DNA of 32,000 bases. Origin: Candidatus Lokiarchaeum ossiferum. Its GTDB lineage: Archaea; Asgardarchaeota; Lokiarchaeia; Sigyniarchaeales; Promethearchaeaceae. Where the stretch lies: NCBI GenBank assembly GCA_025839675.1, contig CP104013.1, forward strand, positions 5,460,001-5,492,000, in the 5' to 3' direction. Each line of letters opens with the position of its first letter. Position 1 is the first letter of the stretch. This document shows positions 2,172 through 32,000 of the stretch, in pieces. The notes under the pieces are model-generated. The model had not been told where the DNA came from. It saw only the letters and a program-made list of their open reading frames with translations, and searched no databases. The translations under genes and the position numbers were made by a program.

Positions 2172-3154
2172 TCAATATTTTGAGGGTGCAAAATAAAATT
2201 GGTGTGTTCCTTAAGTTCCTCTGGAATTGATGCGATTCTATTTCCATTCAAAGTGAATCTTTTTAAATCGTAAAGCAATTCCAAATTGGGTGGGACATAT
2301 TCTATGAGATTGTGTGACAAATTTAATTCTTCAATATTGGGTAATTCGCAGATATGCTTTGGTAGACTTAAGAGTTTATTATTTTCCATAGATAATATTT
2401 TGAGATTCTTAAGATTTTGAATAAATTTTGGGAGGTAGGTAATTTCATTATTGCTCCCATAGATCTTTTCAAGTTTTTTTAATTCGATAATGGATTTTGG
2501 TAGGTGAGTTATTTGATTCTCTTCAAAATCCAACTCTTTTAGGTGTCTAAGGTCTTGAAAATTCGTTGGTAATGTTGTTAGTTGATTTTGACTGATTTTC
2601 AGAATGATTAAGTTAGAAAGATTTGAAAAATTATCGGGTAATGATTTAAACTGGTTGCGTTTTAAATCGAGATATTTTAAACTGGCTAACTTTGAAAATG
2701 ATGTGGGTAAAATTTGCATCACATTGTTGTAAGCCTTAAAGGTTTCTAATTTTCGCAAGTTTCCTATGCTTTGGGGTAAATATTCTAATTCATTGGAGGA
2801 AACATCTAAATAAACGAGTTGCTGACAGTTTTCAATGGATGGAGGTATTTCTTTAATTTTGTTTGATTCAATAACTAACGCTTTCAAGTGAGCCAAATTT
2901 CCAATATTCTCTGGAAGATTTTTAAGTCCTTTTGAATAAAGTCCTAAGCCGGTGACGTGGATTCCTTCTTGAAAATATCCAAAGGTGGAGTATTTAAATT
3001 TTGAAACAAGGGGTATTTTTTCGCCAAGCAATGTTTCTAATTCCATTAATACCTCATATTCTTCCTTAAGAAGTGAATTTTCATGGTATTTTTTCATGGT
3101 TTCCGAAGTAGTCATCAATAGAAATTGTGCTTTTATTTTTTTTAAACCTTCCAT
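2168..3154 (-). CDS. Leucine-rich repeat protein (about 10 repeats of 23 aa, cytosolic type)
   Basis: Tandem 23-residue units of the form LxxLxxLxLxxNxLxxLPxxI. Examples: IGNLRKLETFKAYNNVMQILPTS, FSNLSNLIILKISQNQLTTLPTN, IQNLKNLKILSMENNKLLSLPKH. No signal peptide or TM segment is visible. Its stop overlaps the convergent gene stop at 2168-2171. Confidence 0.85.
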   Translation of the reverse strand: MEGLKKIKAQFLLMTTSETMKKYHENSLLKEEYEVLMELETLLGEKIPLVSKFKYSTFGYFQEGIHVTGLGLYSKGLKNLPENIGNLAHLKALVIESNKIKEIPPSIENCQQLVYLDVSSNELEYLPQSIGNLRKLETFKAYNNVMQILPTSFSKLASLKYLDLKRNQFKSLPDNFSNLSNLIILKISQNQLTTLPTNFQDLRHLKELDFEENQITHLPKSIIELKKLEKIYGSNNEITYLPKFIQNLKNLKILSMENNKLLSLPKHICELPNIEELNLSHNLIEYVPPNLELLYDLKRFTLNGNRIASIPEELKEHTNFILHPQNID

Positions 3155-3322
3155 TATTCGAAGTATTTTGAAAGATTGATTGTTTCATGATATAAAATTT
3201 TCATATCCCAAATATTGTGAAAATTTAAAGGCCTAACATTAATTATTATATATAAGAAACATGTGAATCATTATTATTAATACCAACAATAGTGGCCATG
3301 AGAAAGTGATTGGAGTGATATT

Positions 3323-5968: not shown

Positions 5969-5973
5969 GTTAA

Positions 5974-5989
5974 TTTTTTCCTTTTTTTT
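5974..5989 (+). terminator. Oligo-T tracts (T6, T8) directly after paralogue 1 stop
   Basis: ttttttccttttttttc begins 6 nt after the TGA at 5966-5968. Oligo-T termination is established for archaeal RNAP. Confidence 0.45.
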
Positions 5990-6222
5990 CCGGACTTCCC
6001 CTATTTCGTTTAAATCAATTTCTTTCATGTGGAGAATGGATACTTTTATAAAAATCACAAAACATGAAAATTGAAAATACAACAGATTAGTACCTATATA
6101 TAAACCGAGCTAATGTTTTTTGTGAAAGTTCATTTTTTTCTCCATCAATAAGTCAGAACTCAAGCAAATCTTTTTTTAATTAAACACCCAAAATAAAATA
6201 ATCTTTCAAAAATGTGAACATC

Positions 6223-9056: not shown

Positions 9057-11711
9057 ATGGTCAAATTTAGCGGAATCTTTAAGTTAAAAAGCAAAATCTA
9101 TCTCCCAACCTTAATTGGGATTGTCCTCTCAGTTTCAATGTTTGCAGGATTAAACTTCTTTTTTGAAGCAAGTCAAAAAGCCAATTTTGATGAAGCTTTT
9201 TCCAACATATCCGATATTGAAGTATATCATAGCCATGAAATATGGTATGATGGAGGTAGGCATTGTTATCCGAACACGAAATTCAGTGAATTATTTACAG
9301 AAAATGATCAAAAAATTCAGTCACTAATGGAAAATTCAACTTTGAAGATTAAAGAATTTTCAAGATCGAGTTCTGTCATTTTTGACAGAGGATATTTAGT
9401 CTTAGATGAATATCAGCTTTATGGATGTCAAAATGCTACCGATGTTCTGGATTATTTTTTTTTGATGAACTCTACACTGTTAGGTGTTGAATCCTTTGAA
9501 TCAAGTTTTTATCAATCGGAGTATTTTTCGACTTATTTCAAGCTGATTGAGGGACATGTTCCTGAAAATTCATCCGAATATTTAATTGATTATATTACAG
9601 CTCTGAAATATGGTCTAACCGTTGGAGATATGAAAAATTTTACAATAAGAGAAGGAAATGTTTGGCGTAATCCTGATCCTACTATAAGAGTTGCTCCTCG
9701 GATGCTTGATTATTCCTTTGAAAATTTGTCTATATGCGGAATTTATTTGCCGAAGTATTACAAAGCCAAATTTAATCAAGAATTTTTTTCTTTCTCATAT
9801 AATTTTGAAGATTACCAAAATGGAAAAAAATATACTCAAGAATTTGTTGAAAAGCCCATTTTTTTTTGTTGGTCAAATTTTTCGAATCCTACTTGGGATA
9901 ATCCAGTGAATTCTTTAATTCAAGCAATGAAAAATAATTCTGCAAATCGTAATTGGAAAAATGGTCGTTTTTATTTAAATGGGGCAACAGGATCTGCCTA
10001 TATATATCTGTATGAACGTGATACTCTTAAATACAGGAATATTAATACTGATTCAAAACAAATTTATGTGCAGATGCGAAATATCTCGAGTAATTTACCT
10101 ATTCGTGTGGAAATCCGCAGTTACGTTGAATTTACAATGAGACAATTTTTATCCGAAATACAAGATTTTCGCACTAAACTATTTTTCATGAGTATTCCAA
10201 TGATATTTTGCGCGATTCTAGTGGGATCGAGTTTACAAAAATCGCTTGAAAAAAAACGACTTAATGAAATTTTCTTACTCAGATGTAAGGGTATGAGTAT
10301 TAGAAGTATAAATCTTCATATTTTTAAGGAAATATCTATTGTGATAATTTTTTCTTGGATTTTAAGTATTCTATGTGGTGTTTTGACATTTTATTTATAT
10401 TACTTATTCATGGGGAATATTTTTATCAAATCAACCTTTGAAGGTTTCTTAGTGCCTTACATTTCAGTAAATCCTTTAATCATCTCGTTAATCATATGTA
10501 CCTTTGAAGTATTAATTATTTATTTACCGTTGCGCAAAAAAATCAAGAATCAACATTTCAATGATCTGAATCAATCTTTAAATTCACCCTTCGCTGATTC
10601 TGAAGAATTTTTTGACAATGTACAACAAACCATTCAAGTAAGTATAAATAGAAGGAATCGTCTGAAGCAATTTTTTGTAAAAAGAGCACGAATAAAGAAG
10701 AAAATTAATTCCATGACTGGAGAAAATTCAACTAATTCCCAAAATTGGAAAGACGTTGACCTTTATTATGATCCTGAAGAATATCACTTCCGATTCAAAT
10801 CATTTCTTTTTAAGACAGTCTTAATCTTTGTTATTGCGATCTTCCCATTGTTTTTAATAAGTGTAACAATTCTCAGCTATTCTATGACGTTACCAGATAA
10901 TTATAGCGGATATATTACGTTTTGTAAGAAAAACCCATTTTTACTTGAAATTCTTTTGATGTGCTCGATGGTGTTAAATACGGTGGGGTTATCTCGAATT
11001 TTATTCCAAGATAATCCATCCTTATTTACACGATCTGTAAAATATTTCTCACATTTCATTGTAAAAGATTTTGACACGCTAATTTCAATGGAATTGATTG
11101 GCAAAAAAAAATGGTTAAATATTTTAATATTATTTTCAAGTTTTATTGGGCTCCTAGTTTTTACGAATTTCATTTATCAAAGTAATATTATTTACTCAAC
11201 TCTTATGCAAAATAATGGTAGGGTTCATTATTTTGTTGATTTAGAAGCGAATCAAAGTGTAGTGTTAACTTCTCTTGAATTTTATAACTTCTTCTTTAAG
11301 TTTTTAATTTCTTCAAGCCTCTTCATTTTAGTAGAGTCTGCGATTTTACAAATGCTTCTGTTCAAGGAAAATCATATTTTAAATCAAAGCTTGATGATGC
11401 GAGGTTTAACCACTTCAATTTTGTACAAAATCTTGTTTTTTGAATCTGCCATAATTTTCCTGTTTGGAACCATTATAGGGATTATAATTGGAATTGGTTT
11501 TGGGCTACTTGTATCTTTCAATAATTTCCTCAAATGGCAATGGGAATATTTCCAATATATGGATCATTCAATCGGATTTGGATCCATTATCCATCTTGAG
11601 GTAGGAAAAGTATTGTTAATTATTTTAACATTATTTTTCCTTAGTGTTTCACTCTTTTTTATCTATGTCATTAACCGGAAAAAGCTTACACCTCGTCCAA
11701 ATGAGTTATAA
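9057..11711 (+). CDS. Double FtsX-module integral membrane protein, paralogue 3
   Basis: 884 aa, collinear with paralogues 1 and 2. Shared motifs: KRLNEIFLLRCKGMS, HFNDLNQSLNSPFADSEE, ENHILNQSLMMRGLT, and the C-terminus INRKKLTPRPNEL. Confidence 0.75.
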   Translation: MVKFSGIFKLKSKIYLPTLIGIVLSVSMFAGLNFFFEASQKANFDEAFSNISDIEVYHSHEIWYDGGRHCYPNTKFSELFTENDQKIQSLMENSTLKIKEFSRSSSVIFDRGYLVLDEYQLYGCQNATDVLDYFFLMNSTLLGVESFESSFYQSEYFSTYFKLIEGHVPENSSEYLIDYITALKYGLTVGDMKNFTIREGNVWRNPDPTIRVAPRMLDYSFENLSICGIYLPKYYKAKFNQEFFSFSYNFEDYQNGKKYTQEFVEKPIFFCWSNFSNPTWDNPVNSLIQAMKNNSANRNWKNGRFYLNGATGSAYIYLYERDTLKYRNINTDSKQIYVQMRNISSNLPIRVEIRSYVEFTMRQFLSEIQDFRTKLFFMSIPMIFCAILVGSSLQKSLEKKRLNEIFLLRCKGMSIRSINLHIFKEISIVIIFSWILSILCGVLTFYLYYLFMGNIFIKSTFEGFLVPYISVNPLIISLIICTFEVLIIYLPLRKKIKNQHFNDLNQSLNSPFADSEEFFDNVQQTIQVSINRRNRLKQFFVKRARIKKKINSMTGENSTNSQNWKDVDLYYDPEEYHFRFKSFLFKTVLIFVIAIFPLFLISVTILSYSMTLPDNYSGYITFCKKNPFLLEILLMCSMVLNTVGLSRILFQDNPSLFTRSVKYFSHFIVKDFDTLISMELIGKKKWLNILILFSSFIGLLVFTNFIYQSNIIYSTLMQNNGRVHYFVDLEANQSVVLTSLEFYNFFFKFLISSSLFILVESAILQMLLFKENHILNQSLMMRGLTTSILYKILFFESAIIFLFGTIIGIIIGIGFGLLVSFNNFLKWQWEYFQYMDHSIGFGSIIHLEVGKVLLIILTLFFLSVSLFFIYVINRKKLTPRPNEL

Positions 11712-11998: not shown

Positions 11999-12988
11999 TT
12001 ACAAAATGCTTTTCAAAATTTTAATAAATGAAATAACTTCTTCTCGTTTAAAGGATCCAGTTCCTTTCTGCTTCATAAGCAAGATATAAAGAGGGTCTTG
12101 GGTTTTTTCAATATTAAATTGATCGATATAAAATTCATTATCACCCCGTTCCACTATCATTTCAGTTACACCTTCATCTTGCTTTTCCAAAGTATCACTT
12201 AGGGTTAAGAAATATGGCGTACTGTTTGCAAGAATTTGTTTTGAGGTATTGTCTGCAAAATGTTGTCCAATAACCAATGAATTGGAATCCAATACTATTG
12301 ATGCATTAGAATTGATCTTACCTGAAAATTCTTTAATCGTTTTATCTAAAAGTTCGGATTGGGGGTAAAGTTGGAGCAATATTTCACTAAAGACACTGAT
12401 AATCGACCATAGATCAAAGATCGTTGTTTCTGTAAAGGAAACATTAAATTCTTCATTAACAATTTTTCTAACGTTCTCTTTAATCTCAGAAATAAATCCC
12501 TTTAAGTGAACACCTTTTTCCTTGACATAATCTGGATCATTTTTATGGAAAAGGATGTAAATGAAAGGTTCAATATTCAAGGTTTTAAATTGTTTTATTA
12601 CATCAGCAAAATATGACAAAGATTCAGCAATACGTGGTTTATCTTGAACATCTATCATATAGATACACACCGAAGTATTATCGAAGTACTTAGTTGGTTC
12701 TTTCAAATACGCTATACGATATCTCTCCTGCCCCCCAAGATCCCATTCCGATATTTGTTTTCCTAAGTAATTGAAGATCGCTCGTTGGGCTTGTCGAGTT
12801 GGCTTTAGCATGGCAATTTGAGAAATCTCTCTCTGAAGTAGTTTGATTATTGTCGTTTTTCCTGAATTATCCAACCCTGTGAAAAGAATCTTTTCTTGTA
12901 CTTGGCGAATCTCTGATTGTTTTTGCTTCTCTTTCAGTGTTTCTCCTAAATCTTGAGCAAACTGTGCGTCTTCTTTATTATTTTTCAT
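11999..12988 (-). CDS. Rag/Gtr-like GTPase with C-terminal roadblock domain (full Rag architecture)
   Basis: G1 ILFTGLDNSGKTT, G3 WDLGGQERYR, G4 FHKNDPD, G5 TETTIFD. The segment TTIFDLWSIISVFSEILLQLYPQSELLDKTIKEFSGKINSNASIVLDSNSLVIGQHF aligns by eye with my recollection of human RagA: [56 protein letters not shown]. Confidence 0.8.
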   Translation of the reverse strand: MKNNKEDAQFAQDLGETLKEKQKQSEIRQVQEKILFTGLDNSGKTTIIKLLQREISQIAMLKPTRQAQRAIFNYLGKQISEWDLGGQERYRIAYLKEPTKYFDNTSVCIYMIDVQDKPRIAESLSYFADVIKQFKTLNIEPFIYILFHKNDPDYVKEKGVHLKGFISEIKENVRKIVNEEFNVSFTETTIFDLWSIISVFSEILLQLYPQSELLDKTIKEFSGKINSNASIVLDSNSLVIGQHFADNTSKQILANSTPYFLTLSDTLEKQDEGVTEMIVERGDNEFYIDQFNIEKTQDPLYILLMKQKGTGSFKREEVISFIKILKSIL

Positions 12989-13207: not shown

Positions 13208-13744
13208 TTGAAGTTAATTTTAATGGGAAATCCATCTTCAGGTAAAAGTTCAATACTATATCGATTGTTTTCAAGAGAATTTCAATTGGCGTACATGCCT
13301 ACAATCGGAATGGATTATTATGAAAAATTTTTCTCAAAATATAATATTCTTGCTAATTGTCTCGATTTTGGAGGGATTGATGTGATTGATGTCATAAATT
13401 CTCCATTTTTTAAGGAAGTTGATGTTGTGTTATTTGTTTGCGATATATTTGATAACTACAATCAAAAAAGTTTTTTGAAATTATCTCATTCAATAAAAAA
13501 TCAGAATTCTCAAAAGGTGCACTTTATTATTGTTCGGAATAAATGCGATTTAAATCCTATAACAAATGGAGAATCTCAAAAAATCGACCGATTTTGTGGA
13601 GTTAATGAATTTAAATATATTCACTTATCAGCTAAAACTATGCAAAATTTTGATCTTCTAAAGAAAGCATTATTTTCATCTTTTTCAGACCAAAAAGAAC
13701 AAATTTCTTGTCTAAATTGTTCTACGATTTCAGATTACAATTAA
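13208..13744 (+). CDS. Ras/Rab-like small GTPase, catalytic Gln absent
   Basis: G1 LMGNPSSGKSS, switch I YMPTIGMDY, G3 LDFGGID (DxxG present, Gln replaced by Ile), G4 VRNKCDL, G5 LSAKT. The TTG start at 13208 is needed to encode beta-strand 1 (KLILMG). The next ATG would start inside the P-loop, and an in-frame TAA lies 37 nt upstream. Confidence 0.75.
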   Translation: MKLILMGNPSSGKSSILYRLFSREFQLAYMPTIGMDYYEKFFSKYNILANCLDFGGIDVIDVINSPFFKEVDVVLFVCDIFDNYNQKSFLKLSHSIKNQNSQKVHFIIVRNKCDLNPITNGESQKIDRFCGVNEFKYIHLSAKTMQNFDLLKKALFSSFSDQKEQISCLNCSTISDYN

Positions 13745-16355: not shown

Positions 16356-16377
16356 TTTTTTTTAAAAACTAAATTTG

Positions 16378-17055
16378 ATGATAATCATGAAAAATGTACC
16401 CATATCCGATGAATTATTCAATAGAGTTATGAAATATCAAGAAGATAAAAGCCTTGAAGCCTTTGAACCCGTCGCAAAACGAATGATGGGGATCTATGAT
16501 CTTTCTCCGACTCAAGAAAAGAAAATAATGTTGATTGGGGAAGCAGGTGTTGGAAAATCGACTATCCGACAAACCTTTTTCAACTATGACGATCCAAAAA
16601 AAATGCTTGAAAATTCTCTAGAGCCAACCCGTGGAGTTGAAAATTTCAACTATATTATTTCTGACATTAATCTCCTTGTGTTGGATACTGCGGGTCAAGA
16701 AATAGAAGAATTACTTGAAAAAGATCCTGAAATGCATTTTAGCGACGTTGATGCTGTAATATATGTCGTAGATGCTTCCAAATATCAACAAGAGAATATG
16801 AAAATCTATGATTTACTCTATAGAATTAACAAAACTGCGAAATTTTATTCTCCTGAAGTGAAAATTTCGCTATACTTACATAAAATCGATTTGATCAAAG
16901 AAGATGCTGTAAAAACCTTTAAATTCCGTGCGAATTCTCGTCATAAAGGATATGAGTTAACAGAAAAAATTGAAATTCCCATGTTTTTTACTAGCATTGA
17001 AAAGGAGTTTATTAAGCAATTAGAACTCGCATTCTTAAATCTTTTTTATTTATAA
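16378..17055 (+). CDS. Rag/Gtr-like small GTPase, GTPase domain only (no roadblock C-terminal domain)
   Basis: G1 LIGEAGVGKST, switch I EPTRGVE, G3 LDTAGQE, G4 LHKIDL (Rag-type HKxD), G5 FFTSIEKE (compare Rag FRTSIWDE). The protein ends 18 residues after G5. Start is ATG 16378 (track TTG 16375 also possible), 19-22 nt after the upstream stop. Confidence 0.75.
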   Translation: MIIMKNVPISDELFNRVMKYQEDKSLEAFEPVAKRMMGIYDLSPTQEKKIMLIGEAGVGKSTIRQTFFNYDDPKKMLENSLEPTRGVENFNYIISDINLLVLDTAGQEIEELLEKDPEMHFSDVDAVIYVVDASKYQQENMKIYDLLYRINKTAKFYSPEVKISLYLHKIDLIKEDAVKTFKFRANSRHKGYELTEKIEIPMFFTSIEKEFIKQLELAFLNLFYL

Positions 17056-18136: not shown

Positions 18137-19681
18137 ATGATTAATAAAAATGAGAGTGAAAAAGTATCTTCCTATCCCTTTAATGATTTGCTTGTGAAAG
18201 GATGTGTATTCTCAATCTATTCTGATATGGGTCCTGAAGCAATTTTGTGTTATCCATTACCAAAAGATACATCTTTTTCCTTACTTGATCTTTCCTCTCA
18301 TATATCATCTTTTTCTCAACGTAATTACATGCAAGTTGCTGTAAAAAGCATTTCATTGTTATTGACGGATTATTCTTTCGAAGATAAATCAAATAACTAT
18401 CTTGAAAATATTCATATTTTTGGAGTTTTACCCTATCCAGATATGAAATGTGTCGGTTTGACCTATTTTTGTTATTATTTTTCTTCTAAATCTGATCAAT
18501 ATATACCTGCTACCATTACATTATTTGTACATGAAGATCATAGAAATTTTATTTATGATGCTTTTGATAGATTGAAGCAAGATATACAAAATTTTACTTC
18601 ATCTCTTATTAAGGTGTGTCAAGATCACCATATTTCGTCAGAATTGGGGGCTCAAGATTTTTGGGTGGAAAATTTACCTCGATTCATTAATTTCTTTCAA
18701 AAAATTGAAAAAATCCAATCAAAACCCATTTCGCCTATTACCCAAAAACGGCGGATCAAAATATTATTTACAGGATTAGAAAATACGGGGAAAACAAGTT
18801 TCCTTTTAACAATAAAACGAGAATTCAGTGCATTGCCCAGTTTACTCCCCACCACTGAACCAACAAAGGATAGTCTTGATTTTTTGGGAACAACGATTAT
18901 GAAATGGGATATCCCAGGTCAGAAAGTATTACGGGATGCTATTCTTAAGAATGCTGAACGCTATCTCTATGATTCAGATGTTATCTATTACTTTATTGAT
19001 ATTCAAGATCCACAAATTGCTGATTCTAAGATATTTTTAAGTCAGATTGTTTCTAGTTTAAGTCTATCAGGAATAAAAGTTCCAATTATCTTCATCTTAA
19101 CAAAATGTGATGAAGATATTATTCATTCCAGTAAAATAGCAAACCAGATCCAACACGTAAAAACAATTTTTTCTAATATAGTCAAGGATGTTCCTCATAA
19201 ATATTTTGAAACCTCTATTTTTTCTGATTATAGTATTTTAAATGCTTTTAGCTATGGAATTCGTCAATTATCTCCAAATAAAGAAATGTTAGAGCATCTC
19301 ATGTGGGAATTTATTGGTAGATTGGGTATGATAACTGGTCTCCTATTAAACGAGAACGGAATTGTAATTGCTTCTGCCGATATCTCAGATGGGGATACGA
19401 CAAACAAATTTCCCCATAGTCGAATCTTTGAAATTGCTGCACCTCAGTTTACCACAATCGCTCGCCAGTTTACCCAATATAATCCTCACAAGAGAAATGA
19501 TCTTATTAAATATCAATTTTCAAATGATGATATTGTGCTTCTAAAGAAATTTAAAATACTCGATTTTATGTTTTTCTCCTTATTTTACACAAAGAAACTT
19601 GAGTCCGTGGATCAGCTTGAGCAGAATTTTCCTGTTTTTATAGAAAAGATAAAAAATTTAATAGAAATGTATATTTCTTAA
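18137..19681 (+). CDS. Longin-like / Rag-type GTPase / roadblock-like three-domain protein
   Basis: N-terminal part: VKGCVFSIYSDMGPEAILCYPLP...VKSISLLL...IFGVLPYPDMKCVGLTYF...ATITLFVHEDHRNFIY. GTPase motifs: G1 ILFTGLENTGKTS, G3 WDIPGQ, G4 LTKCDED, G5 ETSIFSD. Roadblock-like stretch: RLGMITGLLLNENGIVIASADIS. Confidence 0.8.
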   Translation: MINKNESEKVSSYPFNDLLVKGCVFSIYSDMGPEAILCYPLPKDTSFSLLDLSSHISSFSQRNYMQVAVKSISLLLTDYSFEDKSNNYLENIHIFGVLPYPDMKCVGLTYFCYYFSSKSDQYIPATITLFVHEDHRNFIYDAFDRLKQDIQNFTSSLIKVCQDHHISSELGAQDFWVENLPRFINFFQKIEKIQSKPISPITQKRRIKILFTGLENTGKTSFLLTIKREFSALPSLLPTTEPTKDSLDFLGTTIMKWDIPGQKVLRDAILKNAERYLYDSDVIYYFIDIQDPQIADSKIFLSQIVSSLSLSGIKVPIIFILTKCDEDIIHSSKIANQIQHVKTIFSNIVKDVPHKYFETSIFSDYSILNAFSYGIRQLSPNKEMLEHLMWEFIGRLGMITGLLLNENGIVIASADISDGDTTNKFPHSRIFEIAAPQFTTIARQFTQYNPHKRNDLIKYQFSNDDIVLLKKFKILDFMFFSLFYTKKLESVDQLEQNFPVFIEKIKNLIEMYIS

Positions 19682-20715: not shown

Positions 20716-21294
20716 GTGCCTGAAACAATTAATGTTGAAAATAAACGCCATTCTGCTACATACAGTATTCAAAATATTGTTGTTTCAGTGGAATTAAATC
20801 GTGATATTAATCTTAAAAGTATTTGCGAAGCATATAAAGATGCAGAAGAAAATTTAAACAAGTTTCCGGGAATTTGCCTGCGCTTGAAAAAGCCAAAATG
20901 TGCAATCTTGTTGTTTTCCAACGGTAAAATGGTAATTACTGGATTAAAATTATCAAAAGATGCTCCGGTTGTAATAAATCGGGTTATTGATCGATTAAAC
21001 GCGATTGGTATTGAAATAGTTGATGATCCAGAGTGGCGCCTTGTTAATTTAGTTTTAAGTTTAAATTTTCGGCAATCAATTCCTTTAGATGAAGCTGCAT
21101 TACTTTTATCTCATAGTATTTATGAACCCGAAGTCTTTCCTGGTTTAATTTTCCGAATTCAAGAACCTAAAGCAGTTTTTCTCATTTTTAGTTCTGGAAA
21201 GGTTGTTTTAACAGGTTTGAAAGCCGAAAGCCAAATTTTACCTGCAATTAAACTCTTGGGCAAAACATTAAAAGAAAATGGTTTGCTCAACTAA
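20716..21294 (+). CDS. tbp: TATA-box binding protein (archaeal TBP)
   Basis: Two internal TBP repeats. Repeat 1: IQNIVVSVEL...FPGICLRLKKPKCAILLFSNGKMVITGLK. Repeat 2: LVNLVLSLNF...FPGLIFRIQEPKAVFLIFSSGKVVLTGLK. GTG start. Confidence 0.9.
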   Translation: MPETINVENKRHSATYSIQNIVVSVELNRDINLKSICEAYKDAEENLNKFPGICLRLKKPKCAILLFSNGKMVITGLKLSKDAPVVINRVIDRLNAIGIEIVDDPEWRLVNLVLSLNFRQSIPLDEAALLLSHSIYEPEVFPGLIFRIQEPKAVFLIFSSGKVVLTGLKAESQILPAIKLLGKTLKENGLLN

Positions 21295-21383: not shown

Positions 21384-23003
21384 ATGGATGCAAATAAGCC
21401 AGCTGTTTATATTCGGGGGATTTATTCTACTGCCCTAACAAAAATATTCATTGACGCGGGATATCCAATCATTTTCGCATCAAAAGAAATTCGAAAACGC
21501 TTTAATCTCCCATTTAGGCCCAAAAAAGGATATTCAAAAGATATAACTATTAGAGATCGGCTTGATAAACAAGGAGTATCAATCATGTTTAAAAAGCACG
21601 TATGGGAAAAACTTGAAGCTGAAGAATTCAAAGATTTTCCATTGTGGCAAACCAATAATGCTAATTTAATAGTATATAAAGCACGTTTTCACAAAAATGC
21701 TATTTATCGCGGGTTGATTGTTAAATCTAATCGCAATTTTAATTATTCTTATGTTCGTCTTGCCCCAGAATCAATAAATAAAAATGGAGAGCTGGATTCA
21801 GATGATTTTAAAACAACAGTTGCTAGATATGCTCGTTACATCCCTGATTCAAAGGAAGGTATTTTTCAAATCACGCATGAAGATAGCGGTGAAAATTATG
21901 CTTCACTTGGGTCATTTTATACGATTCCAGGAGATTTGATCGTAATCGTACCCTACAATAATAAAGTTATTATCAGCAAAGAAATTACGTATGGGAAGCA
22001 AAAAAAACGTTTATTTGATCTTGGTAAAGAAATTCAACAAACTAAAAAATATGGATTCATATTTCGAACTGCTGCGGAATTAGCAACTAATGACGAAATA
22101 CTCGAAGAGGTAGATCGCTTAGAAAAAGATCTAATTCAAACACAAACTGATATTACACAATTCCCAGATCGGATTGGAGAAATTTATTCTAACTATCGTT
22201 CAATTAATGTTATATTTCCAGCTCAAATGAAAAATGAGTTGGATAATATTCGAAGAACAATCTTACCTACTCTTGAGTCTCACCATATTATTAAATCGTT
22301 GCCAGTGTGGAAAAAAACTGCAAGTGAGCCGAAAAAAGATGATAATAAATTCCAAGACCGAAGAAAATATGATAAAAAGCAATCATTTCGTGAAGAAGAT
22401 GAAGGACAATCTTTGAATTTTGGAAAACTCGTAGATTTTACCGAAAATTTGTTGAAAGGCGTAGACTCATCCCAACATGACACAATACATCAAAATTTCT
22501 TGCATGAATATTACAAAGAAATATTAAAAACCCGGAAATCCTTCTCTGTTTCTCATCAAAAATTAAGTGGAAAAACAATCCATCTATCTTCTGGATATAT
22601 TAAAGCAGTAGAGCTTGAATCTAATCTGCAAAATAAAGTTGTTTTAAAACGAAGAATGCGTGAAGGTGGATTGTATGATGGGCTAAACACGCCCATTGAA
22701 TATGGGGATTATGCTATTGGTGAATATACTCAAGGAAGTTGGTACTATGTGAGTTCCTATTATTCAGCCAACAATGAACTCAAGGGAAGATATTACAATG
22801 TCAATACTCCGATCGAAATTACCGAAGCTGGGATTCATTACATCGATTTAGAGGTGGATGTGGTGGAAAACATGGTTGGAGAAAGAAAAATTATTGATAA
22901 AGACATTTTAGATCATGCTTTGGACATGGGCTTCATTTCTGAGGAAATGTATGCTAAAGCGATAACTCTCGCCGAAAATATTGTAGAAGGACGGGTTGTT
23001 TAA
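21384..23003 (+). CDS. fau-1: FAU-1-type RNA-binding protein / RNase E/G-like ribonuclease with C-terminal DUF402 domain
   Basis: The N-terminus VYIRGIYSTALTKIFIDAGYPI matches the FAU-1 family signature (IRGIYATALTKLL). The C-terminus NELKGRYYNVNTPIE...IHYIDLEVDVV matches the DUF402 pattern. Confidence 0.65.
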   Translation: MDANKPAVYIRGIYSTALTKIFIDAGYPIIFASKEIRKRFNLPFRPKKGYSKDITIRDRLDKQGVSIMFKKHVWEKLEAEEFKDFPLWQTNNANLIVYKARFHKNAIYRGLIVKSNRNFNYSYVRLAPESINKNGELDSDDFKTTVARYARYIPDSKEGIFQITHEDSGENYASLGSFYTIPGDLIVIVPYNNKVIISKEITYGKQKKRLFDLGKEIQQTKKYGFIFRTAAELATNDEILEEVDRLEKDLIQTQTDITQFPDRIGEIYSNYRSINVIFPAQMKNELDNIRRTILPTLESHHIIKSLPVWKKTASEPKKDDNKFQDRRKYDKKQSFREEDEGQSLNFGKLVDFTENLLKGVDSSQHDTIHQNFLHEYYKEILKTRKSFSVSHQKLSGKTIHLSSGYIKAVELESNLQNKVVLKRRMREGGLYDGLNTPIEYGDYAIGEYTQGSWYYVSSYYSANNELKGRYYNVNTPIEITEAGIHYIDLEVDVVENMVGERKIIDKDILDHALDMGFISEEMYAKAITLAENIVEGRVV

Positions 23004-23094: not shown

Positions 23095-23346
23095 ATGGGA
23101 AAAGTACTTGCTTTCACATTTTTACAGATTGAGCGCCAAAAACGCAATATGGTTAAAGATTACTTGATTAACTTACCCGAAGTTAAGGCCTATTATCGTT
23201 TGACGGGAGCCTACAATGGATTAGTCGAAATTGAAACTAATGATACTGAAGAGATGTACGCTCTCTATTCTGAACATATTGACAATTTGGATGGTATATT
23301 GGAAACCCAAACACAAGTTGTAATTAAGAAATTTTCCGTTCGATAA
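23095..23346 (+). CDS. Stand-alone Lrp/AsnC ligand-binding (RAM) domain protein, no HTH
   Basis: 83 aa: AFTFLQIERQKRNMVKDYLINLPEVKAYYRLTGAYNGLVEIETNDTEEMYALYSEHIDNLDGILETQTQVVIKKF. This fits the beta-alpha-beta-beta-alpha-beta AsnC_trans_reg pattern. Confidence 0.7.
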   Translation: MGKVLAFTFLQIERQKRNMVKDYLINLPEVKAYYRLTGAYNGLVEIETNDTEEMYALYSEHIDNLDGILETQTQVVIKKFSVR

Positions 23347-23365
23347 TGATCTTGGAGATTTTTTG

Positions 23366-24727
23366 ATGATTTCAACAATTTTAATTTTGGTACTTGTAAA
23401 TGTTCTCGTTGGATTAGGTCCTTTATTCATCAAGTTCTTGCCTTCATTGAGCCCATTTTCAATTACTTTTGTAAGATTTTTTATTTCTGCTCTGTTAGAG
23501 CTAGTTATTATAATTGTTCTTTATATCCGTCTGTATTTTCAATTTAAAAATAAGGATTGTGTTTTAGATTTTCGGACGATTGTAAAACAGTCCTTGAAAA
23601 ACTATTATGGAGGGAAAAATTCTCAATTTCTAAAAGGAAGATCACAATTATTATATCTGGCCTGGGTAGGCTTTTTACAAGTTGGGATTGTCGTTCCCTT
23701 TTATTATTTAAGCTTTGAATATATGGGTGTGGTACTAAGTACAATCACTTCTTGCTCAATACCAATCATTGTAATTGCTTTTATTAATTGGGCACAAAAA
23801 CATGAGGAAATGGGGGCTTTTAAACTGATTTACTTATTTCTTCTAGTTGCGGGGGTCATTACTATTGCTTTTAGTAGAACTGGTAATGAAAATCAAAAAC
23901 TAAGCTTTATCGGTGTTTTTGTTCTTATTCTCAGCACAATCGCTTACATCAGTTATTTAGTTTCTGTCGGCCGGGATTCTCAGTTAAGGGTAAAATTATT
24001 TGACCATTTTCGAGTCAGTGGGTTTCCCAATTCGAAAAAAATCATCCAAACAGTCAATTTGTTACGTTCATTTCTTAAATTATTTGGAATGCATTTCTTT
24101 GGAACTCTTTGTCTTTTGATTTTATCCGTGATCCTAAGTTTTATTGCTCCAAATGGTGAAATTGGATTAAAGTGTCATCAATTTTTATACATTGACATAA
24201 AATCCTTTGGATCTCTTCTTCTTAATCCCTTTGTTCTTTCTATAGCATTAATTTGCACTTTACTCCCCTTCTTCTTACAATTATTTGCTTCCATGAAATG
24301 GCCTCGCTTTACTCTAAGTTTTGAATCTTGGAACAGTATTTTAATTGTAATTCAACCTTTAATGGGATTGTATATTGGTTTAATTATATGGGGTGAACCT
24401 ATTCAGAGCGATTATGTTATTTTCACAACAATTTTCCTTGTGATTTCAATTCTAATTCGTTATCTCCATGAAAATTCTAATTTTATGCTTGTTCTCTTTA
24501 CTGTAAGGGTAATAAATGTGAATGCGAAGAAATTGATCACATTCCTTCATTCAATTAAAGAAATTGATGAGATCAATTATTCTTTAGGGAGATATGGTTT
24601 GTTAATTCACGCAAGTGTTCGCTCTCTCCCACGATTGTTTATTATTAAAAAAAGCCTTTTAGAATTTCCTGGAGTACTTGAAGTAAATTATTACCCTGAA
24701 GTGGCGATAAAAACCGATTCTACATGA
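23366..24727 (+). CDS. EamA/DMT-superfamily transporter with C-terminal RAM-like domain
   Basis: About 10 hydrophobic segments arranged as two EamA-like halves. The last roughly 80 aa (nt about 24473-24724), MLVLFTVRVINVNAKKLITFLHSIKEIDEINYSLGRYGLLIHASVRSLPRLFIIKKSLLEFPGVLEVNYYPEV, align position by position with the upstream 83-aa RAM protein. An SD-like GGAG lies 9 nt upstream. ATG 23366 is preferred to TTG 23363. Confidence 0.7.
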   Translation: MISTILILVLVNVLVGLGPLFIKFLPSLSPFSITFVRFFISALLELVIIIVLYIRLYFQFKNKDCVLDFRTIVKQSLKNYYGGKNSQFLKGRSQLLYLAWVGFLQVGIVVPFYYLSFEYMGVVLSTITSCSIPIIVIAFINWAQKHEEMGAFKLIYLFLLVAGVITIAFSRTGNENQKLSFIGVFVLILSTIAYISYLVSVGRDSQLRVKLFDHFRVSGFPNSKKIIQTVNLLRSFLKLFGMHFFGTLCLLILSVILSFIAPNGEIGLKCHQFLYIDIKSFGSLLLNPFVLSIALICTLLPFFLQLFASMKWPRFTLSFESWNSILIVIQPLMGLYIGLIIWGEPIQSDYVIFTTIFLVISILIRYLHENSNFMLVLFTVRVINVNAKKLITFLHSIKEIDEINYSLGRYGLLIHASVRSLPRLFIIKKSLLEFPGVLEVNYYPEVAIKTDST

Positions 24728-27599: not shown

Positions 27600-28868
27600 T
27601 TATGCAACTATTACCTTTTCAATTTGTTCTAATGCCCAATCCAATTCTTCTTTGGTGATAACCAAAGGTGGAGCAAATCGAATGGTTGTAATATGGGTAT
27701 CTTTTGCCAAAATGCCGTTCTCTTTGAATTGTTCAACAAATTGTCGAGCATTTCCTTCAAATTCCATAGCAATCAACAATCCTTTGCCGCGTACTTCTTT
27801 AACGGGGATTTTGGTGTTTTTAGTTGCAATCTTACGTAGACCTGCTTGGAAATATTCTCCCAATTCTGCAGCTCGATCAGCTAGTTTTTCATCTACTAAA
27901 ACGTCTAAAGATTTTGAGGCAATTACACTGGCTAATGAATTTCCACCAAAAGTGGAACCATGGGTTCCTGGTTTAATTACATCTGGACCAACAACATCTT
28001 TATTGGTAACAATACCAGATACGGGGTAAATTCCTCCTCCAAGTGCTTTTCCTAATAAAAGCATATCTGGTTTTACATTTTCATGATCTACTGCAAACCA
28101 TTTTCCAGTACGACATAAACCAGATTGAATTTCATCAGCGATCATTAATACATTGTATTTAGTACAAATCTCTCTAACTTTTGTGTAAAATCCTTTTACT
28201 GGTACTTTTACTCCAGCTTCTCCTTGGATTGGTTCAAATAGAAATGCTGCGACATTTTCTGGACCTAATTTTAGTATATGGTCTTCCAATTCTTGAGCAT
28301 CACCATAGGGAATGATGTCAAATCCTGGTGTAAATGGACCGAAGTTACCATAATAGTTTCCACATTGTGTGTCTGTGCTAAATCCGACAATAGTTATTGT
28401 TCTACCATGGAAATTGCCATCGCATACAATTATTTTTGCTTGATCTTTAGGAATTCCTTTTTTAATATATCCCCATGCACGGGCCACTTTTAATCCAGTT
28501 TCAACTGCTTCAGCACCTGTGTTCATTGGTAAAGCCATGATACCCGAATTTTTTGGATCATTGATGTGAGGTCCAACTATTCCACATAATTTCTTTAGGT
28601 AAGGTCCCATCTGATCATTACAAAATGCTCGAGAAGTAACTGCAACCTTTTTTAATTGTTCCTCGGCAGCTTTAACAATTTCAGGATGACAATGTCCCAT
28701 ATTCTGGCTAGAGTAAGCAGAAAGACAGTCTAAATATTTTCGGCCTTCTGGATCCCATACCCAGCAACCTTCGGCTTTAGAAATAACCACTTCTAAGGGG
28801 TGATAGTTGTGAGCCCCATATTCATGGTCCATATCGATATAATCTTGTGATGATGGCATAATTTTCAC
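27600..28868 (-). CDS. rocD: Ornithine aminotransferase (ornithine--oxo-acid transaminase, class III PLP)
   Basis: HNYHPLEVVISKAEGCWVWDPEGRKYLDCLSAYSSQNMGHCHPEIV closely matches the canonical OAT N-terminal signature. Also MIADEIQSGLCRTGKW and LLLGKALGGG (PLP Lys). Confidence 0.9.
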   Translation of the reverse strand: MKIMPSSQDYIDMDHEYGAHNYHPLEVVISKAEGCWVWDPEGRKYLDCLSAYSSQNMGHCHPEIVKAAEEQLKKVAVTSRAFCNDQMGPYLKKLCGIVGPHINDPKNSGIMALPMNTGAEAVETGLKVARAWGYIKKGIPKDQAKIIVCDGNFHGRTITIVGFSTDTQCGNYYGNFGPFTPGFDIIPYGDAQELEDHILKLGPENVAAFLFEPIQGEAGVKVPVKGFYTKVREICTKYNVLMIADEIQSGLCRTGKWFAVDHENVKPDMLLLGKALGGGIYPVSGIVTNKDVVGPDVIKPGTHGSTFGGNSLASVIASKSLDVLVDEKLADRAAELGEYFQAGLRKIATKNTKIPVKEVRGKGLLIAMEFEGNARQFVEQFKENGILAKDTHITTIRFAPPLVITKEELDWALEQIEKVIVA

Positions 28869-28888
28869 GTTTGTTTTTTTTTAAAAAA

Positions 28889-29794
28889 TTAGAGATGGAA
28901 ATGCGTTCCTGCGGTTCCAGCAAGTGCTTCCGTTATGTTGTCGACAGATGTAATTATTGCTTGTTCCCCACCTGCTTCAATGAAGTTGATACATGCTTGA
29001 ATTTTTGGTCCCATGCTACCTGCTGGGAATTGGCCTTCTTCTAAATATTTCTTTGCATCAGCAATAGTGAGTTCATCGAGGCGACTTTCGTTTGGTTTCC
29101 CAAAATTTAAGGCAACTTTTTCTTCATCCGTAGCAATCATCATGATATCTGCATGGATTTGTTCCCCAAGTTTAGCAGTTGCAAGATCTTTATCAATCAC
29201 AGCTTCCACACCCTTCAATTTCATATTCTTCTTAAAAACTGGGATCCCTCCTCCACCACATGCAATAATTATGAAGTTATCTTGCATTAATCGTTTGATT
29301 TCGCGATATTGATATATTTTATATGGTTTTGGTGAAGGTACAACTCTTCGCCAGCCTTTCGCGGTTTTTACAAATCCTGGTTTAGGATCTGGATATGCAG
29401 GACCAACCGGTTTTGTCGGGTTTTGGAAGGCTGGATCATCTTCTTTTACTCTTGTATATGTTAGAATTGTTAAAAAGAGCTTTTCATCGGCCATACTTAA
29501 CCGCATTAGCTCCTCATCTAGTGTTCGTTCTATCATATATCCAATTTGACCTTGAGTTTGAGCTCCAATAACTGATAAGGGCATTTTTGGAACTTCATCA
29601 CAAGCTTCTTGTTGTAATAAAAGATTTCCCGATTGAGGACCATTTCCATGGGTGATTACGAGATGGTAATCTTTTGATAATTCTGCCATCTGAGCAACAG
29701 GTTTGCGAATGTTACTGAATTGCTCTTCTGCAGTTCCTTTCTGACCTTTTTGAATTAAGGCATTTCCACCAAGAGCAATTATGAGCTTTTTCAT
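28889..29794 (-). CDS. arcC: Carbamate kinase
   Basis: LIIALGGNAL, ITHGNGPQSGNLLLQQ, NPTKPVGP, WRRVVPSPKP, CGGGGIPV, GVEAVIDKDLA, FPAGSMGPKI. It is collinear with the canonical Enterococcus carbamate kinase as I remember it. Confidence 0.9.
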   Translation of the reverse strand: MKKLIIALGGNALIQKGQKGTAEEQFSNIRKPVAQMAELSKDYHLVITHGNGPQSGNLLLQQEACDEVPKMPLSVIGAQTQGQIGYMIERTLDEELMRLSMADEKLFLTILTYTRVKEDDPAFQNPTKPVGPAYPDPKPGFVKTAKGWRRVVPSPKPYKIYQYREIKRLMQDNFIIIACGGGGIPVFKKNMKLKGVEAVIDKDLATAKLGEQIHADIMMIATDEEKVALNFGKPNESRLDELTIADAKKYLEEGQFPAGSMGPKIQACINFIEAGGEQAIITSVDNITEALAGTAGTHFHL

Positions 29795-29826
29795 GTGATA
29801 TTCACCGGATTTTTATAGAAAAAAAA

Positions 29827-30771
29827 TTAATCCATAATTCCTAACAAGAAAAGCATAATTGCTTTTTGAGCATGTAATCGGTTTTCAGCTTGATCGAATA
29901 CAATTGATTGCGGACCATCAATAACTTCGGCAGTTTCTTCATAGCCTCGTTTTGCAGGTAGACAATTCATAAAAATGGCATCCGATTTTGCCGCTGCCAT
30001 AACTTCTGCATTCACTTGGTAAGGCATGAAAGTTTTTACACGTTCTTCTTCTTCATCTTTAGGAATTCCATAACTCATCCAAGAATCTGCATATAAAATA
30101 TCTGAATTTTTAGCAGCTTCCAAAGCATTATGTACAACTCGAATTTTAGCTCCAGTTTTTTTTGCAATTTCCTCACATTCATCAATAACTTCTTGTTCTG
30201 GGGCATATTTTGGATCATCTGGGCAAGCTACATCTAAATCCATTCCAAACATTGCACACATTCGCATCAAATCATAAGTGACGTTGTTATAGCAATCTCC
30301 ATAGAAAGACATTTTCAAATTATCAAATTTGCCTTTCTTTTCTTTAATGGTTTGAAAATCGCACATGATTTGGCATGGATGAGCAAAATCGTCCAACATA
30401 TTTATTACTGGTACGTCCGAATTTGCTGCAATATCTTGAATGTCTTTTCGTTTGAATACTCGAGCAGAAATCATATCAACATATCGAGAAGCACATTTTG
30501 TGGTATCTTGAATTGTTTCTTTAATTCCTAAGGGAGAGTCTTTAATAGAATAGAAAATTGCGTGTCCTCCCAATTGGGTCATTCCTGTTTCAAAAGAAAC
30601 ACGGGTACGGAGGGAAGGTTTTGCAAAAATCATTAAAAGTGTCTTGTTTTTCAACTTTGTAGTGTATTTTTCATTCCATAAATCCGCTTTCATTTTAATT
30701 GCATAATCAATGATAGCTTCACACTCTTCGCGGGTGAAATCGGAAACTTTAGTTAAATGTCGTAGTGTCAT
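29827..30771 (-). CDS. argF: Ornithine carbamoyltransferase-family transcarbamylase (probably catabolic OTC; two specificity motifs deviate)
   Basis: SLRTRVSFE (SxRTR), HPCQ, SIVFDQAENRLHAQKAIM. However, the SMG loop reads DSWMSYG (canonical DxWxSMG) and HCLP reads NCLPA. Confidence 0.8.
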   Translation of the reverse strand: MTLRHLTKVSDFTREECEAIIDYAIKMKADLWNEKYTTKLKNKTLLMIFAKPSLRTRVSFETGMTQLGGHAIFYSIKDSPLGIKETIQDTTKCASRYVDMISARVFKRKDIQDIAANSDVPVINMLDDFAHPCQIMCDFQTIKEKKGKFDNLKMSFYGDCYNNVTYDLMRMCAMFGMDLDVACPDDPKYAPEQEVIDECEEIAKKTGAKIRVVHNALEAAKNSDILYADSWMSYGIPKDEEEERVKTFMPYQVNAEVMAAAKSDAIFMNCLPAKRGYEETAEVIDGPQSIVFDQAENRLHAQKAIMLFLLGIMD

Positions 30772-30860
30772 TTTATTATTACTCCTTCTAAAAGATATTT
30801 TGGTAATACAAAAAAAAATGGAAATTAATCCATATAATTTATTCGTTGTTGGATGTCAGT

Positions 30861-32000
30861 TTAATTTTTTGGAAATTTTACAATGAATTCTTCAAGCATA
30901 CTTTCAATAGAAGGTGTTCCTAAAGATTTGATATCATAATCAACGCGAACAATTGGTTTATTGCATTTGATTAATTTTCCTAAATCTATTGGGCTTCCAT
31001 CAATTACAACATCAGCAGGGACTGCATTAATTGTTTCTTCCATATCCTTGATTTGTTCATCATTGTATCCCATAGCTGGAACAATATCATCTAATTGTGG
31101 GAATTCTTTGAAGACTTTCTTCATTCCACCAACTAAATATGGTTTTGGATCAACTACTTTTCCGTTGTGTTCTCTGGCAGCAATCATACCTGCACCATAA
31201 GCCATGTTTCCATGAGTTAAGGTTGGACCATCTTCAACAACTAAAACATTTTTACCATCAATCATGCCTTCTTTTCCTGCTTCAACAGTAACGAGTGAAT
31301 TTGTTCTTAAAACTGCGGCCTTTGGATTCAATATCTTCATATTTTCTTCAACAATTTTAACATCTTCAGGTTTAGCAGAATTCAATTTGTTTAATACAAA
31401 AGCATGGCACATTCGGGCATTTACCTCACCAGGATGGAATTGAACTTCGTGGCCTGGTCGGAGAGGATCTACCACAGTGAACATTAAATCTGGAACGTAG
31501 AATGAAATTTCATTATTTCCACCGTCAAACACAATAATGTCTGCTTCCTTTTCGGCTTCATCTAAGATCTTTTGATAGTCAACACCAGAATAAATGACCA
31601 AACCTTGTTCAATATATGGTTCGTATTCTTCACGTTCTTCAATGGTGCATTTATATTTGTCTAAATCTGAATATTCTGCAAATCGCATGCAAGTTTGTTC
31701 GATTAAATCGCCATATGGCATTGGTTCTCGAACAGCTACCACTTTATATCCTTTTTCTTGTAAGAAGCGATATACTGCACGTGAGACTTGGGATTTTCCA
31801 CAGCCTGTTCGAACTGCTGTAATTGCAACAACTGGTTTGTTTGATTTAATTTGAGTATATTTTGGGGAAATAATTCGATAATTTGCTCCATAGGATAAGG
31901 CTCGTGACCCTTTGTGCATAACTTCTGCATGTGGAACGTCCGAATAGGCAAAAACTACTTCATCAATGCCATTATCTTTAATGAATGCTTCCATTCGTGG
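30861..32000 (-). CDS. Cyclic 2,3-diphosphoglycerate synthase-like P-loop protein (COG2403 predicted GTPase family), N-terminus outside window
   Basis: DEVVFAYSDVPHAEVMH, VVAITAVRTGCGKSQVSR (P-loop), VREPMPYGDL, CTIEEREEYEP, IVFDGGNN. The reading frame remains open to position 32000, and family members are about 440-460 aa. Confidence 0.7.
   Translation of the reverse strand, partial: PRMEAFIKDNGIDEVVFAYSDVPHAEVMHKGSRALSYGANYRIISPKYTQIKSNKPVVAITAVRTGCGKSQVSRAVYRFLQEKGYKVVAVREPMPYGDLIEQTCMRFAEYSDLDKYKCTIEEREEYEPYIEQGLVIYSGVDYQKILDEAEKEADIIVFDGGNNEISFYVPDLMFTVVDPLRPGHEVQFHPGEVNARMCHAFVLNKLNSAKPEDVKIVEENMKILNPKAAVLRTNSLVTVEAGKEGMIDGKNVLVVEDGPTLTHGNMAYGAGMIAAREHNGKVVDPKPYLVGGMKKVFKEFPQLDDIVPAMGYNDEQIKDMEETINAVPADVVIDGSPIDLGKLIKCNKPIVRVDYDIKSLGTPSIESMLEEFIVKFPKN

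Follow-up and report, generated by a model that had tools for sequence, protein, structure and literature searches.

A conserved gene pair in Candidatus Lokiarchaeum ossiferum sets a stand-alone RAM protein beside a DMT-fold membrane protein that ends in a diverged RAM domain

What does an Lrp/AsnC ligand-binding (RAM) domain do when it comes without a DNA-binding domain and its gene stands directly before that of a transporter which itself ends in a RAM-like domain? The question is raised by two forward-strand genes in a 32,000-nucleotide (nt) stretch of the Candidatus Lokiarchaeum ossiferum contig CP104013.1 (positions 5,460,001 to 5,492,000; hereafter the window), the first encoding an 83-amino-acid (aa) stand-alone RAM protein (the free RAM) and the second a putative transporter of the drug/metabolite transporter (DMT) fold with a C-terminal cytoplasmic tail. 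We found the pairing to be conserved at nearly all loci compared and to be matched, in one bacterial lineage, by a fusion of both parts. We read it as a two-gene operon in which a DMT-fold metabolite transporter would dock a separately encoded RAM subunit by means of its own C-terminal RAM domain, an interpretation for which we see about an even chance.

The case for a partnership begins with gene order. Among 13 distinct loci, in which genes of 80-117 aa with a PF01037 match on the same strand were taken as free RAM genes, one or two such genes lay directly beside the transporter gene in 12 (Table 1), separated from it by gaps of 2-126 nt. These pairings span transporter identities from 100% down to ~22% and GC contents of 0.30-0.63, and a free-RAM ortholog adjoins every close transporter ortholog, while the other neighbours of the module were all different among the 13 loci. 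Three ortholog lineages carry an asp_race-type amino-acid racemase independent of pyridoxal phosphate (TIGR00035, 205 bits) directly 3' of the transporter, which may hint at a D/L-amino-acid as substrate or ligand; no racemase was found in the window.

In Spirochaetota, the two kinds of RAM domain are joined covalently. A 541-aa protein (P0045/P0096, MBN8215563.1; present in two sources whose sequences differ slightly) comprises, in order, a DMT domain, the tail RAM (~355-437), a low-complexity linker of ~30 residues and a second RAM (464-539). The second RAM aligns end to end with the free-RAM profile (34.8 bits, i-E 6.9e-13), matches PF01037 (E 2.8e-16) and has the motif ITGEYD. Since tail and free-type RAM are fused in one lineage and adjacent in others, they are expected in one complex, for which a pseudo-dimer of tail and free RAM is the simplest unit. 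The original prediction for this locus, made from the letters of the window, had proposed that the free RAM partners the fused one, and the breadth of the pairing together with the bacterial fusion supports that proposal.

In the window itself, the stop codon of the free RAM gene (TAA) is followed after a spacer of 19 nt by the transporter ATG at 23366, with the GGAG inside the spacer, in agreement with the layout originally read. Spacing on one strand is similarly short, 2-70 nt, at orthologous loci. By mechanical calling, the open reading frame (ORF) begins at an in-frame TTG at 23363, but the start of the homologs coincides with the ATG. The spacer also contains six T in a row (ATTTTTTG) at 23358-23365. 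Archaeal transcription can terminate at oligo-T tracts, and partial termination here could raise the ratio of free RAM to transporter.

The 83-aa protein is a bare RAM domain, as it was first described. It matches PF01037 at E 5.9e-13 with 49 bits, where the cut-off is 25, its NCBIfam matches span just the C-terminal halves of Lrp-type regulator models, and scans with Pfam and NCBIfam gave no helix-turn-helix (HTH) family match for it or for the transporter. A profile built from nine orthologous and paralogous sequences matched the RAM domain of FL11 (PH1519; E 8e-14) and the stand-alone RAM protein DM1 (E 1e-9). The assignment rests on sequence, because a single-sequence AlphaFold2 model (pLDDT 75), arranged as β-α-β-β-α-β, gave only generic ferredoxin-like matches in Foldseek. 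No PII signature was among the Pfam matches, and PII structures appeared only as weak generic matches of this low-quality model. Within the 32-kb window, no RAM domains were found beyond the free RAM and the transporter tail.

By alignment, the ligand-contact residues D39, T69 and T71 of DM1 correspond to N41, T71 and T73 of the free RAM, which lie in the motifs TGAYNG (residues 37-42) and T71-Q-T73. Free RAMs across the family retain TG-x-[YFW]-[DN]-G and T-x-T, and in the distant ones both the Asp and T-x-T(H) are present. The T-x-T of the last strand we take, from the structures of DM1 and Grp, to be an amino-acid contact. The Asp of β3 is equivalent to D102 of Sa-Lrp, which is required for glutamine binding and ligand response (PMC3584215).

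The homology of the transporter tail to RAM domains is real and is visible only by profiles or structure. Pairwise BLASTP of the window tail against the free RAM was not significant (E 0.67), and its PF01037 score of 13-17.6 bits is below the cut-off of 25. All nine ortholog tails (9/9) match PF01037, with a best E of 1.7e-11, and the ten best Protein Data Bank matches of the tail profile are all Lrp/AsnC proteins. Tail and free-RAM profiles aligned in hhalign with a probability of 93% (E 2.8e-7), and the alignment is identical to the element-by-element pairing from which the original prediction had argued; their identity of ~13% points to an old divergence and not a recent duplication. The structure search that had been proposed for the tail, run with Foldseek on the AlphaFold2 model, found the RAM fold: the tail superposes on DM1 (2e1a) with a TM-score of 0.85 and a root-mean-square deviation of 1.6 Å, on TTHA0845 (2djw) with 0.80 and on STS042 (2zbc) with 0.79, as well as on RAM halves from FL11, Lrp, AsnC and other proteins. 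In the model, the tenth transmembrane (TM) helix (TM10, 349-373) passes directly into strand β1 (375-383), followed by a helix (385-396), two strands (401-406 and 413-419), a second helix (422-434) and a last strand (438-445). Strand β1 begins ~five residues after the junction motif without a flexible linker, and this motif, R-Y-x-H-E, is nearly invariant among 40 aligned family members (R in 35/40, Y in 32/40, E in 35/40). The hairpin Gly of G-x-Y-D is invariant in the family tails and the Asp of G-x-[YFW]-D is present in 32/40, while the equivalent of T-x-T is not systematically retained in the 40.

Hydropathy and the positive-inside rule give the transporter 10 hydrophobic helices with both ends inside. 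Its K/R-rich loops (56-93, 203-234 and 311-318) are all on one side, so that both termini and the tail are cytoplasmic. An AlphaFold2 model from a nine-ortholog alignment (pLDDT 84.6, pTM 0.81) placed the membrane part with DMT structures in Foldseek (probability 1.0 for LicB, SLC35B1, Vrg4, the CMP-sialic acid transporter CST, YddG 5i20 and the triose-phosphate translocator TPT, with TMt <=0.70), including LicB 7paf at E 5.5e-4 and TMt 0.70. According to this model, the protein is of DMT/EamA fold with 10 TM helices; the original reading of a 10-TM EamA-type transporter is thus confirmed for helix number and fold, with an EamA (PF00892) sequence score of 24.8 bits that is below the cut-off of 28.2.

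The suggested survey of EamA-RAM fusions was carried out as an exhaustive profile search of 1.84 billion representative proteins (E<=1e-3, clusters at 50% identity), with family taxonomy resting on the source names of the sequences. It returned 72 clusters, mostly from Promethearchaeota, of which ~40 have the full length of 420-480 aa, with an alignment that extends through the tail. No ordinary EamA proteins were among the 72 matches, which indicates a highly diverged membrane domain; EamA was matched (E<=0.01) by 22/40 family members, with a best E of 3e-11, and PF01037 by 29/40. The close transporter homologs are all named Promethearchaeia or Lokiarchaeota, and the source names of the family are Promethearchaeota, Lokiarchaeota, Harpocratesius and one Spirochaetota metagenome-assembled genome. 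Product names range from 'hypothetical' and 'DMT-like permease' to 'Lrp/AsnC ligand binding domain-containing protein' and 'DNA-binding Lrp family transcriptional regulator'. The last of these labels, carried by three 10-TM members from JGI/IMG (P0027, P0094 and P0098), is wrong for a 10-TM protein without HTH and is an error propagated from the RAM tail.

How might such a pair work? RAM domains dimerise, form higher assemblies, bind amino acids between dimers and respond by changes of assembly or conformation, and DM1 can join a mixed octamer with full-length FL11 (PMC2995911). This hetero-octamer is a precedent for mixed RAM assemblies. Our best reading is that the transporter is directly controlled after translation, in a ligand-dependent manner, by a RAM heteromer, a reading to which we give about an even chance. 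Tail and free RAM would come together in a heteromer beneath the transporter by way of the usual RAM-RAM interfaces, and these interfaces would bind a small molecule from the cytoplasm, most probably an amino acid or something closely derived from one; an amino-acid-type ligand is favoured because of the RAM domain family and the racemase neighbour. Most of the binding would fall to the free subunit, where the canonical contacts Asp/Asn and Thr-x-Thr are retained, and the bound ligand would alter conformation or assembly state, as it does in Lrp, FL11 and DM1. This change would then travel through the rigid TM10 junction to switch transport on or off. That the RAM domains form a membrane-tethered heteromeric metabolite sensor which directly gates a DMT-fold transporter is possible, at somewhat less than an even chance.

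Characterised amino-acid DMTs are exporters, and Lrp-type sensors usually induce exporters. For these two reasons the direction that we prefer is ligand-activated export, which would act as an overflow valve; the preference comes only from the analogy to amino-acid DMTs and to Lrp-exporter pairs, PA2577-PA2576 among them. Mechanistically, an importer under trans-inhibition would suit the data just as well.

The original prediction had described a sensor fused to the transporter. A RAM domain is indeed fused, and this much stands, but the description is probably too simple because the tail of the window clade has lost its contact residues (G, V and Y for D, T and T); the free RAM is probably the better sensor and the tail its docking site. 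Several observations weigh against our reading. The window tail, with G, V and Y at the equivalents of D39, T69 and T71, belongs to a clade in which all three canonical contacts are lost, the free RAM of the same clade has Asn (N41) in place of Asp, and ligand binding in this clade may therefore be weaker, altered or absent. Canonical RAM ligand sites sit between the dimers of an octamer, and a heteromer tethered to the membrane may not be able to build them. Divergence of the membrane domain from EamA is so great that a transport function is deduced from the modelled fold, and one locus of the 13 (P0048) is without an adjacent free RAM.

Signalling could instead run in the reverse direction, the transporter acting as a 'transceptor' by which the free RAM is bound or let go depending on substrate flux, with the released RAM joining factors of the Lrp or feast/famine regulatory protein (FFRP) type and altering expression. 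The synteny and Rosetta-stone evidence for a complex of tail and free RAM applies alike to this arrangement, a tail without ligand-contact residues is what a pure docking site would be, and sequestration at the membrane has parallels in that of GlnK by AmtB and of MalT by MalK. Stand-alone RAMs also form hetero-octamers with full-length regulators (PMC2995911). We nevertheless consider release of this kind unlikely, since the Spirochaetota fusion permanently tethers a free-type RAM, and no Lrp-type HTH gene is conserved beside the module, an HTH_24 gene being nearby only at one locus (L012).

We likewise regard as improbable a purely structural role, in which the RAM domains would oligomerise, stabilise or assemble the transporter without sensing a ligand. 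The missing systematic T-x-T of the tails, to which the window clade adds the loss of the tail Asp and an Asn in the free RAM, is in keeping with such a role, as is the view that some Lrp-like proteins of archaea do not bind amino acids (PMC2995911). However, the free RAMs of the family keep Asp and T-x-T and 32/40 tails keep G-x-[YFW]-D, a conservation that is predicted by a ligand site and not by a simple scaffold. Independent functions, by which the free RAM would be a 'demi-FFRP' regulator of a generic kind and the tail the remnant, now without a role, of a former fusion, might be suggested by the commonness in archaea of stand-alone RAM genes with unclear roles (PMC2995911) and by the insignificant pairwise similarity of tail and free RAM, but they are highly improbable and strongly disfavoured by synteny and fusion, that is, by an adjacency that has persisted despite full turnover of the other neighbours, by a tail and junction motif kept family-wide and by the covalent DMT-RAM-RAM polypeptide.

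Table 1. Features of the window (first 18 rows) and of the loci compared with it; "window" denotes the 32,000-nt stretch, and dashes under strand denote the reverse strand.
Locus	Feature	Position	Strand	Remarks
Window	Three tandem paralogous ORFs, 881-893 aa	3323-5968, 6214-8895, 9057-11711	+	One FtsX-like permease match each, ~residues 380-500
Window	Small-GTPase gene	11999-12988	-	
Window	Small-GTPase gene	13208-13744	+	
Window	Small-GTPase gene	16375-17055	+	
Window	Small-GTPase gene	18137-19681	+	
Window	TATA-binding protein (TBP)	20716-21294		
Window	539-aa RNase E/G-like (180-289) + DUF402 (444-507) protein	21384-23003	+	Directly 5' of module
Window	Stand-alone (free) RAM protein gene	23095-23346	+	83 aa; TAA stop 23344-23346; no DNA-binding domain
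Window	GGAG, Shine-Dalgarno-like	23354-23357	+	8 nt 5' of transporter ATG; read in the sequence, putative function
Window	Transporter ORF	ATG 23366 to 24727	+	TGA stop; 453 aa from ATG, 454 aa from TTG 23363
Window	Transporter membrane domain	23366-24481	+	Residues 1-372 (from ATG); 10 TM helices; DMT/EamA fold
Window	Junction motif R-Y-L-H-E	24458-24472	+	Cytoplasmic end of TM10; family alignment
Window	C-terminal cytoplasmic RAM-like domain of transporter	24482-24727	+	~Residues 373-445, then short disordered end
Window	MutS domain V-type ATPase, 747 aa	24825-27068	+	Directly 3' of transporter
Window	Ornithine--oxo-acid transaminase	27600-28868	-	Above NCBIfam cut-off
Window	Carbamate kinase	28889-29794	-	Above NCBIfam cut-off
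Window	Ornithine carbamoyltransferase	29827-30771	-	Above NCBIfam cut-off
Window	377-aa ORF	30861-31994	-	No family match
L002	Amino-acid racemase	5442-6140		
L004	Amino-acid racemase	5426-6127		
L008	Amino-acid racemase	5310-6002		
L001	Conserved ~165-180-aa upstream protein	3174-3668		
L002	Conserved ~165-180-aa upstream protein	3121-3627		
L004	Conserved ~165-180-aa upstream protein	3098-3643		
L008	Conserved ~165-180-aa upstream protein	2968-3477		
Window	Free RAM relative to transporter			One upstream
P0004, P0005, P0006, P0007	Free RAM relative to transporter			One upstream each
P0009	Free RAM relative to transporter			Two upstream
P0008	Free RAM relative to transporter			One upstream and one downstream
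P0097 (Lokiarchaeon CR_4)	Free RAM relative to transporter			One upstream and one downstream
P0013	Free RAM relative to transporter			One upstream, 2-nt gap
P0092	Free RAM relative to transporter			One downstream
P0098	Free RAM relative to transporter			One downstream
P0057	Free RAM relative to transporter			Two downstream
P0048	Free RAM relative to transporter			None adjacent

The remaining genes of the window are listed in Table 1. The cluster at 27600-31994 resembles the lower half of a pathway for arginine/citrulline catabolism of the arginine deiminase (ADI) type, and the 377-aa ORF stands where the deiminase would be expected. The original prediction had taken this nearby amino-acid catabolic operon as support for an amino-acid valve; we rejected it as support for the module, as it lies 3 kb off on the other strand and is missing from the loci compared with the window, and give the link little weight. 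Neither of the genes that flank the module is conserved with it at other loci: the upstream RNase E/G-like protein resembles archaeal RNA-binding nucleases of the FAU-1/aRNase type, and the downstream ATPase has its best NCBIfam similarity, which is sub-threshold, to KamC, the reactivase ATPase of lysine 5,6-aminomutase, and not to MutS2. Four small GTPases are encoded within 8 kb, three with matches to the Gtr1/RagA family (one of these, of 514 aa, has a long extension at its N-terminus) and a fourth that is Ras/Roc-like. In eukaryotes, Rag GTPases serve in amino-acid signalling, and GTPase clustering is typical of Asgard genomes. At four ortholog lineages, a protein of ~165-180 aa without a Pfam match is encoded directly 5' of the free RAM gene, where it adjoins a type IIG (Eco57I/MmeI-like) methyltransferase-endonuclease; no homolog of this conserved protein (~168 aa) was found in the window.

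Small ligand-binding proteins of β-α-β type that act on the cytoplasmic face of a co-encoded transporter are known from GlnK-AmtB and SbtB-SbtA, with fusions in some lineages, and these systems likewise have a conserved gene pair of transporter and small sensor. The likeness is one of analogy only, as GlnK and SbtB are PII trimers with T-loops whereas RAM domains form dimers and octamers, and here the transporter carries a homologous docking domain. Fused C-terminal ACT-like domains that give trans-inhibition occur in MetN (the C2/NIL domain of the MetNI methionine importer) and in ModC. Like the tail described here, they are ferredoxin-like, amino-acid-binding domains on the cytoplasmic side, where ligand-dependent association locks the transporter; however, they belong to another family, are carried by the ATPase subunit of an ATP-binding cassette (ABC) transporter and need no free partner, while the present protein is a secondary carrier of DMT fold.

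Closer in components are the gene pairs of an Lrp/AsnC regulator and an EamA/DMT exporter, such as PA2577-PA2576 of Pseudomonas aeruginosa (PMC8707732), in which a RAM sensor is likewise coupled to a DMT-type transporter, the likely logic being that an internal metabolite controls its own transporter. Those pairs act transcriptionally through the HTH, whereas here there is no HTH, and the presence of a RAM domain in the transporter's own polypeptide implies that control acts on the protein. Stand-alone RAM proteins (of the DM1/PH1533 type in Pyrococcus, STS042 in Sulfolobus tokodaii and TTHA0845 in Thermus) share the domain, the fold and the size of 75-92 aa; they give the closest structural matches to the tail (TM-scores of 0.79-0.85) and match the free RAM strongly in sequence. 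DM1 holds amino acids at dimer-dimer interfaces and forms mixed assemblies with a full-length partner (PMC2995911). These known proteins are soluble, and only transcription factors have been proposed as their partners, whereas here the conserved partner belongs to a membrane transporter, as its fused RAM domain. The DMT fold, the RAM domain and the general logic of sensor and transporter are thus already known, and databases detect the domains in some family members, with the architecture as such unstudied. In the literature searched, most subscription journals lying outside the search, no report was found of a transporter that has a RAM domain as part of its chain or as its partner, in accord with the original statement that the EamA-RAM architecture is not known as characterised.

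Stand-alone RAM proteins have been crystallised repeatedly, and their physiological role has been called unclear (PMC2995911); a conserved, linked membrane partner makes that role directly testable. If the proposed control holds, it would give stand-alone RAM proteins their first output at the post-translational level and their first defined physiological partner, and the DMT/SLC35 superfamily a new regulatory mechanism, and would extend the RAM domain beyond transcription. It would also bear on a family whose annotation is inconsistent and in some members wrong. The module occurs mainly in Asgard archaea, whose syntrophic way of life has the control of amino-acid flux at its centre; for organisms that live by syntrophic amino-acid degradation, in which the module is enriched, it may represent a fast amino-acid valve.

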